A stretch of 64,000 nucleotides of DNA from Escherichia coli (lineage in GTDB: Bacteria > Pseudomonadota > Gammaproteobacteria > Enterobacterales > Enterobacteriaceae), in NCBI RefSeq assembly GCF_003334765.1, contig NZ_QOWT01000016.1. One strand, given 5' to 3'. The notes under the pieces were generated by a model. The model searched no databases, was not told where the DNA came from, and worked only from the letters and a program-made list of their open reading frames with translations. Below are positions 30,831-31,121 of the stretch, one piece after another. Position numbers and translations under genes: made by a program. Position 1 is the stretch's first letter, and every line of letters starts with the position of its first letter.

Positions 30831-31121
30831 GTTACGAATCCTTGAAAACTTGTCTCAGTCAGACCAGACAGTCACACACAGTGGAAGTGTGCTAAGTATA
30901 GCCCTGATTAAACATATTACGGGTAATCGTCTGGATTATTAGGCTATTTTATTTGCCATTTTGGCCCCGGGCAGTGCTCGCCATCCTCACGTACTTTTGT
31001 ACGCTCCGGTTGCTGCGCGCTGGCCGTGACCAAACTGCCTGCAACAATAACGCCTTATAACCAGACTTACGCCCCCGCGATACTTACGCGGAATCTTACC
31101 CTTATTTATCCATCACGGGAA

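Follow-up and report, generated by a model that had tools for sequence, protein, structure and literature searches.

A probable mobile-repeat insertion accounts for the length of the pyrH-frr spacer of Escherichia coli

The long non-coding spacer between pyrH and frr, which we analyzed in a stretch of 64,000 nucleotides of Escherichia coli DNA (hereafter, the window), is best explained as an ordinary enterobacterial spacer of ~149 bp into which a non-autonomous, MITE-type palindrome of ~140 bp has been inserted and is carried as a tolerated passenger; we put the probability of this reading at about 0.8. The long gap beside an essential translation gene would then be a mobile-repeat insertion that conceals no riboswitch, with little consequence for the locus. 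The finding is an ordinary one, as it concerns a repeat of a known kind in the best-studied bacterial genome. It corrects the picture of the operon, which has two frr promoters and a main frr leader containing a polymorphic hairpin of 140 nt but shows no sign of a pyrH terminator, and it bears on comparisons of frr or pheS expression across E. coli lineages, whose leaders differ by this element. The sole part that in our view deserves further work is the apex of the hairpin, which recurs across phyla and could matter more than the frr locus itself.

The genes rpsB-tsf-pyrH-frr-dxr-uppS-cdsA-rseP follow one another on the minus strand of the window. Between pyrH (31122-31847) and frr (30273-30830, with a GTG start codon at 30828-30830) lie 291 bp (30831-31121, minus strand) that contain only short open reading frames (ORFs) of 32-36 aa. 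With genes called by a self-trained codon-model gene caller, this spacer ranks second by length among the 55 inter-gene gaps of the window (median 48 bp) and is the longest among the gaps between co-directional genes, in agreement with a preliminary description that had singled it out as unusually long and non-coding. Its sequence is 100% identical to positions 192581-192871 of E. coli K-12 MG1655 (window position = 223702 minus MG1655 coordinate), an interval that is empty in the RefSeq annotation. At the pyrH end, a small hairpin, CACGGAATAATTCCCGTG (31114-31131, minus strand), presents the pyrH TAA stop codon in its loop and is kept in enterobacteria; this conservation is uninformative, because the hairpin overlaps coding sequence. 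The last codons of pyrH, UUAAUCAC (31134-31141, minus strand), are complementary to the frr start region, GUGAUUAG (30823-30830, minus strand), and RNAalifold pairs the two segments in all seven species (alignment columns 6-13 with 195-202). As both segments are coding and nearly invariant, and compensatory double changes are absent, the pairing is without covariation evidence.

A megablast search recovered the spacer from 5425 of 5426 complete E. coli genomes, in full length from only 3513. The remaining E. coli genomes (~1,900 of 5,426, ~35%) gave a two-piece match spanning half of the spacer, and in two strains from this group the spacer measures 149 bp. Alignment of the two alleles showed that the long (K-12) allele corresponds to the 149-bp short allele plus one block of 145 nt that replaces 3 nt; this block (30927-31071, minus strand) is specific to the long allele. 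Six outgroup spacers, those of Salmonella (146 bp), Klebsiella (150 bp), Franconibacter (170 bp) and three other Enterobacteriaceae (162-163 bp), are all colinear with the short allele and lack the repeat. Because outgroups and short allele are colinear at ~150 bp, we regard this length as the ancestral state and the K-12 length, about twice the usual one at this locus, as a derived insertion. The long allele is now the majority allele, found in ~65% of E. coli.

The body of the inserted repeat, TCTGGTTATAAGGCG...AGCCTAATAATCCAGACG, spans positions 30928-31065 (minus strand), of which 30942-31054 can be aligned across genera. The RNA of the repeat is predicted to form one hairpin of 153 nt (-60.3 kcal/mol, z = -4.4 versus shuffles), which is capped by the apex GGAGCGTACAAAAGTACGTGA (30987-31007, minus strand), where a GUAC/GUAC stem carries a loop of 4 nt and is flanked by G-U and tandem G-A pairs. 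Used alone as a query at lower stringency, the 145-nt block matched E. coli genomes at 5 places in the median (6 in MG1655), and in the ~1,900 genomes without the frr copy the best match is another copy of 85-88% identity. This other copy, apparently present in almost all E. coli, sits in sense orientation downstream of the pheM attenuator and ahead of the pheS start codon (1501-1621 of loci L005/L006) and ends in ...GGGCT/CTAAG. Another occupies the divergent spacer between rlmL (rlmKL) and ycbX, a site that is filled in 4191 of the 5426 genomes. There, filled and empty alleles (L134 versus L133) differ by exactly 146 bp, made up of a 141-bp element and a duplicated CTAAG, i.e. a clean target duplication, and the element has inverted termini, AGCCTACCGCAGTAGGC opposite GCCTAATGGGACAGGCG. 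E. albertii bears the element at the same rlmL-ycbX place (L026), and members of the family were found in E. albertii, Enterobacter, Pantoea and Erwinia with alignment identities of 61-73%.

These properties identify the repeat as a MITE, since it is a small, non-coding and imperfect palindrome that is present in several copies, ends in inverted repeats, duplicates its target and is polymorphic for insertion. Its copies, at 138-146 bp, are well below ~300 bp and carry no transposase gene, the only internal ORF being one of 32 aa with a TTG start. The terminal inverted repeats are evident in the rlmL-ycbX copy, the whole element being palindromic, and the target duplication emerges there from the comparison of filled and empty sites. 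Dispersion to a median of five places goes along with presence or absence at individual sites, as at frr (filled in 3513/5426) and at rlmL-ycbX. A non-systematic look through the loci examined turned up no transposase whose ends match those of the element. Three of the located copies or relatives adjoin translation genes (frr, pheS and tsf), which may be chance.

We suggest that the element was inserted by transposition, with a transposase provided in trans, and that its target site would contain TA (CTAAG or CTAA). The flanks of the frr copy, GTAAG on the left and ATTAC on the right, do not form a clean duplication. The left junction departs from the short allele in a stretch of 6-7 nt that resembles the reverse complement of the expected target copy, and the 8-nt sequence GCGTAAGT, repeated directly at 31065-31072 and 31082-31089 (minus strand), brackets it. 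Due to this reverse-complement-like stretch and the direct repeat, the left frr junction is not a simple cut-and-paste scar. The insertion splits an ancestral hairpin, GGGTAAGAT..ATCTTACCC, within its 3' half.

Published SMRT-Cappable-seq data for MG1655 (Yan et al. 2018) place two transcription start sites in the spacer, 192616 and 192813; the former is represented by 475 reads, its transcript 192616-193491 carries frr alone, and abundant pyrH read-through transcripts cross the spacer (PMC6131387). In the window, the distal frr promoter P1 (31086-31101, minus strand) starts at 31086, 7 nt past a -10-like TAAGAT (31093-31098), and the proximal promoter P2 (30889-30900, minus strand) starts at 30889, 6 nt past TATACT (30895-30900). 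Judged from this spacing and from conservation, TAAGAT and TATACT are the probable -10 elements. An alignment of seven enterobacterial spacers contains three conserved blocks, namely AAATAnGGGTAAGATTCCGC, in which the P1 TAAGAT resides, ATTAAAcGGGnCTATACTTAGCAC, and the last ~45 nt with the Shine-Dalgarno sequence; the P2 TATACT is invariant across all seven. The frr 5' UTR downstream of P2, TGGTCTGaCTGAGACAAGTTTTCAAGGATTCGTAAC (30828-30888, minus strand), with its Shine-Dalgarno motif AAGGA (30839-30843, minus strand), is common to both alleles and all outgroups. The mapped start sites thus bear out the earlier proposal that the spacer holds an frr promoter, except that there are two promoters and not one.

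As the two start sites flank the repeat, it falls within the 256-nt leader of the main frr mRNA, beginning 14 nt into the P1 transcript. Its 3' edge is located 26 bp upstream of the P2 -10 element, and its A+T-rich right arm, at 30933-30957, begins at about -39 from the P2 start, upstream of the -35 position.

The preliminary description had also held that the spacer must contain the pyrH terminator, and it had named start-site and Term-seq data as a way to check the interval. This part was not borne out. A simple scan of the coding (minus) strand of the spacer detected neither a terminator hairpin followed by a U-tract nor a consensus promoter, both promoters having emerged only from the published start sites, and Term-seq (Adams et al. 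2021) reported no 3' end between 190800 and 192871 (PMC7815308). With both a scan terminator and a Term-seq 3' end absent, there is no evidence for a pyrH terminator, and the read-through transcripts are in line with this conclusion. Term-seq did record an "orphan" RNA 3' end at 192871 (window 30831), the base that directly precedes the frr start codon (PMC7815308, supplementary files 1 and 3), and a further one at 192996, inside frr (PMC7815308).

It had further been proposed that the spacer leaves room for additional regulatory RNA structure. A large structure, the 153-nt hairpin, is indeed present, but it belongs to a dispersed, polymorphic repeat and is not specific to this locus. The covariance-model and conservation scan that had been suggested gave no support for a regulatory RNA. 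An Rfam 15 search of the spacer at a permissive E <= 10 provided no usable family match; the only match was to sX9, with E = 0.16 and a score of 22 bits where the gathering score is 44. For the ancestral spacers, RNAalifold yielded no covariation-backed conserved structure (covariation term +0.11; 2 of 33 pairs compensatory), with the exception of the local ancestral hairpin of the short allele, GGGTAAGAT..ATCTTACCC, for which Klebsiella has the covarying arms GGGTAATAT..ATATTGCCC and whose 5' arm sits in the P1 region. In partition-function folding, the repeat folds as its own module, and the downstream structure is the same with or without the insert; the mean unpaired probability is 0.67 with and 0.61 without the insert for the Shine-Dalgarno sequence, and 0.65 with and 0.80 without it for the start codon.

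Based on the mapped transcripts and on the folding calculations, the repeat would be transcribed within the 256-nt leader of the major frr mRNA as well as in pyrH-frr read-through transcripts, and its RNA is predicted to fold on its own into a hairpin of -60 kcal/mol that stays clear of the ribosome-binding site. A dedicated frr leader RNA, such as a riboswitch, an attenuator or a protein-binding autoregulatory structure in need of a long spacer, might be expected to look similar, i.e. long, transcribed as 5' UTR and strongly structured. We nevertheless consider it highly improbable, as the structured part is a multi-copy repeat that occurs at unrelated loci and that 35% of E. coli and every outgroup lack, while the spacer matches no Rfam family and its common ancestral portion is essentially devoid of covariation; the presence/absence data largely refute this explanation. 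An arrangement in which the spacer holds an intrinsic pyrH terminator, a single sigma-70 promoter, a short UTR and otherwise only filler is very unlikely as well. The short-allele hairpin GGGTAAGAT..ATCTTACCC followed by GUAAUAUGUUUAAUC could act as a weak terminator, but the lack of a terminator-like site on the coding strand and of a Term-seq 3' end after pyrH, the abundant read-through and the two start sites all argue against it, and the "filler" is a defined repeat family. We give hardly any weight to the notion of the spacer as a gene for a small protein or for an independent small RNA. Short ORFs do exist, for example one of 32 aa at 30949-31047 on the mRNA strand, and ERIC-type repeats are known to contain ORFs that are occasionally fused to genes (PMC2759123). 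The ORF at 30949-31047, though, has a TTG start and lies wholly within a mobile repeat that many strains lack, and no separate transcription start or stop has been mapped around it.

The alternative that the element has been exapted is possible, although we regard it as unlikely; the frr hairpin would then stabilize the mRNA or guide its processing by RNase E or RNase III, or the right arm would serve P2 as an UP-like element. There is precedent in ERIC elements, MITEs that are co-transcribed with neighbouring genes and that, in Yersinia mRNAs, alter transcript levels and stability in an orientation-dependent, RNase E-linked manner (PMC2229807, PMC3184786, PMC10969869). An exapted role would also suit the position of the element inside the main frr leader, close to the P1 transcript 5' end, the block GGCAAATAAAATAGCCTAATAATCC just upstream of the P2 -35 region, for which an UP-like effect can be envisaged, the majority status of the long allele and the second copy in the pheS leader of nearly all E. 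coli. The frequencies of the two copies are compatible with neutrality and with some benefit alike. On the other hand, frr manages without the element in a third of E. coli and in all outgroups, and because it is an essential gene, the frr repeat is most likely a tolerated passenger. Likewise, the predicted accessibility of the ribosome-binding site is unchanged by the insert, and no processing or 3' end has been reported within the element (PMC7815308). As a tolerated passenger, the repeat would at most modulate frr mRNA processing or stability, or the strength of P2, by analogy to ERIC in Yersinia mRNAs.

Among known repeats, the frr element most closely recalls ERIC/IRU/RU-1 sequences (~127-bp MITEs), with which it shares the imperfect palindrome, a near-equal length, the hairpin architecture, a location in transcribed intergenic DNA, insertion polymorphism between E. 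coli strains and a target containing TA. The frr apex GGAGCGTACAAAAGTACGTGA differs from the ERIC core GGAGCTTACATAAGTAAGTGA, as given by the ERIC1R/ERIC2 primers and the canonical copies L014-L018, L034 and L116, by one compensatory pair (G-C in frr, T-A in ERIC) and one of the two free loop bases, so that the apex reads GGAGCGTAC..AAGTACGTGA in the frr repeat versus GGAGCTTAC..AAGTAAGTGA in ERIC. Outside the apex, the resemblance ends. The ERIC core is flanked by CCCCA and CTGGGG, whereas the frr repeat has AACC and GGAT, and the TGAGCG part next to the ERIC core is unmatched. The arms cannot be aligned, identity to ten canonical ERIC copies amounting to 36-40% with the shared core included, and an nhmmer comparison of the frr-type repeat with ERIC from which the core had been removed gave no profile match. 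Moreover, the sister copy at rlmL-ycbX duplicates CTAAG (or CTAA), while the duplication reported for ERIC is TA; CTAAG contains TA, but a TA-only duplication would require 3 extra chance base matches. The frr-type repeat also differs from ERIC in having only ~6 copies per K-12 genome. Because the arms are unalignable with ERIC outside the apex, we do not file the frr repeat as ERIC and, going by sequence comparison, take it as a sister family of the same architecture.

The frr repeat is probably an "RSA" repeat, a name that we offer as a lead; RSA repeats are reported to be ~152 bp long and present in 6 copies in K-12 (Bachellier and Hofnung; Blattner 1997). The two agree in the 6 places occupied in MG1655, in a size of 141-146 bp for the repeat studied here and in a dispersed intergenic distribution in enterobacteria, and the frr-type repeat carries two RsaI (GTAC) sites at its apex; the two are not known to differ in any respect. 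With REP/BIME sequences the repeat has in common that they are repeated extragenic palindromes within operons. REPs, however, are G+C-rich units of 20-40 bp that are clustered and mobilized by RAYT-type enzymes, whereas the element considered here forms one hairpin of ~140 bp, bounded by terminal inverted repeats and associated with a duplicated target. Correia/NEMIS elements of Neisseria, RUP, bcr1 and SPRITE are likewise small palindromic mobile elements that reside in leaders or 3' UTRs, are co-transcribed and form long hairpins, which in Correia/NEMIS-type MITEs are open to RNase processing (PMC10969869). The frr repeat has no sequence relation to Correia/NEMIS elements and lacks an evident IHF site or outward promoter. 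An identity with boxC was rejected, as boxC is a purine/pyrimidine triplex motif (PMC4666352).

A canonical ERIC/IRU element with the core GGAGCTTACATCAGTAAGTGA (32963-33091, minus strand) occupies the rpsB-tsf spacer, two genes upstream in the same cluster. It begins ~10 nt past the rpsB stop codons and fills most of this 257-bp spacer, the third longest gap of the window. With the frr repeat in one and the rpsB-tsf ERIC in the other, the two longest co-directional gaps of the window therefore each hold one member of the ERIC-type group. The rpsB-tsf ERIC is followed by a strong hairpin and T-run (32903-32928, minus strand), a terminator that stops exactly where published Term-seq data place a 3' end, at 190800 (PMC7815308).

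The apex that links the frr repeat to ERIC was then used as a probe by itself. A scan for the exact 21-mer GGAGCGTACNNAAGTACGTGA (19 specified bases) in one genome per species (100,044 species, 298 Gb) returned at least 120 stretches from many phyla, compared to ~2 chance matches expected by our own estimate. Among the matches listed, the apex tops a long hairpin in ~100 of the 113 that could be scored, with a median of 49 pairs and a span of 151 nt. Multi-copy apex hairpins of 120-170 nt occur in Mesorhizobium, Devosia, Aminobacter, Bosea and Agrobacterium, and further ones, again among the matches listed, in Candidatus Scalindua, several Bacteroidales, an Opitutales genome, Nitrospirales, Kangiella and Bacillota. 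In 2.9 million viral contigs, the apex was matched only 3 times. The apex stem shows compensatory changes at two different pairs. With the apex removed, an nhmmer profile search detected no arm similarity between different phyla, and a test of the arms for an asymmetry of G-U versus A-C, as an indicator of the functional strand, showed no consistent bias. Rfam searches of apex copies, including those of Mesorhizobium and Lysinibacillus, found no family that covers any of them.

Many of these hairpins abut genes. Among the matches listed, a natural stop codon lies 0-3 nt before the element in 37 of 42 alphaproteobacterial copies (loci L009, L013, L023, L024, L037, L046, L065, L085, L091, L098, L109 and L111), in 7 of 7 Opitutales copies (L077-L083) and in 3 of 3 Scalindua copies (L010-L012). 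Stop-adjacent elements always have one orientation, antisense to the apex as written, and alphaproteobacterial copies between co-directional neighbours are split 16 versus 0 in orientation, while enteric copies mostly have the opposite one (13 versus 4). The junction reads roughly C-T-N-A-G or CTAG, with TAG, TGA or TAA as the stop codon, and 9 of 10 abutting genes are confirmed to encode full-length known proteins that reach the end of the family profile (NCBIfam). De Gregorio et al. are said to have described in 2005 that Yersinia ERICs, too, lie adjacent to stop codons in one orientation. A different setting is seen in the Lysinibacillus/Psychrobacillus/Sporosarcina group, in which copies reside in 23S-5S spacers (L057 at 437-457; L107, L089 and L066-L069) or in tRNA arrays (L088, L106, L108 and L020); the six copies with Rfam-annotated neighbours (L020, L057, L088 and L106-L108) are in sense orientation. 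The Sporosarcina apex hairpin adjoins a match to Bacillaceae-1 RNA.

We tentatively propose, although the odds are against it, that the apex marks a superfamily of hairpin repeats extending far beyond Enterobacteriaceae and Vibrionaceae. We know of no earlier description of such a cross-phylum extent of the ERIC-type apex, within a limited check of the literature. A 2024 review assigns ERIC to Enterobacteriaceae and Vibrionaceae (PMC10969869). A constant apex combined with divergent termini is the opposite of what is expected for a MITE recognized by a transposase, and it suggests a conserved function that resides in the apex itself. Candidate roles include a site for a universal RNA- or DNA-handling factor and a module that couples mRNA fate to translation termination. 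If it is real, the cross-phylum, stop codon-adjacent class bears on what ERIC-like elements do and on how they move.

Two identifications were considered for subsets of these copies and discarded. CIR elements, considered for the alphaproteobacterial copies, consist of two arms joined by a linker (PMC2229807). Those Bacteroidales copies whose right arm is odd, considered as an autonomous parent element, turned out to be nested insertions of a second small hairpin. Such a second, unrelated small hairpin is nested in one arm of several Bacteroidales (L117, L120-L123 and L096) and Mesorhizobium copies (L038, L084, L103 and L110), showing that the apex hairpin elements are themselves insertion targets.
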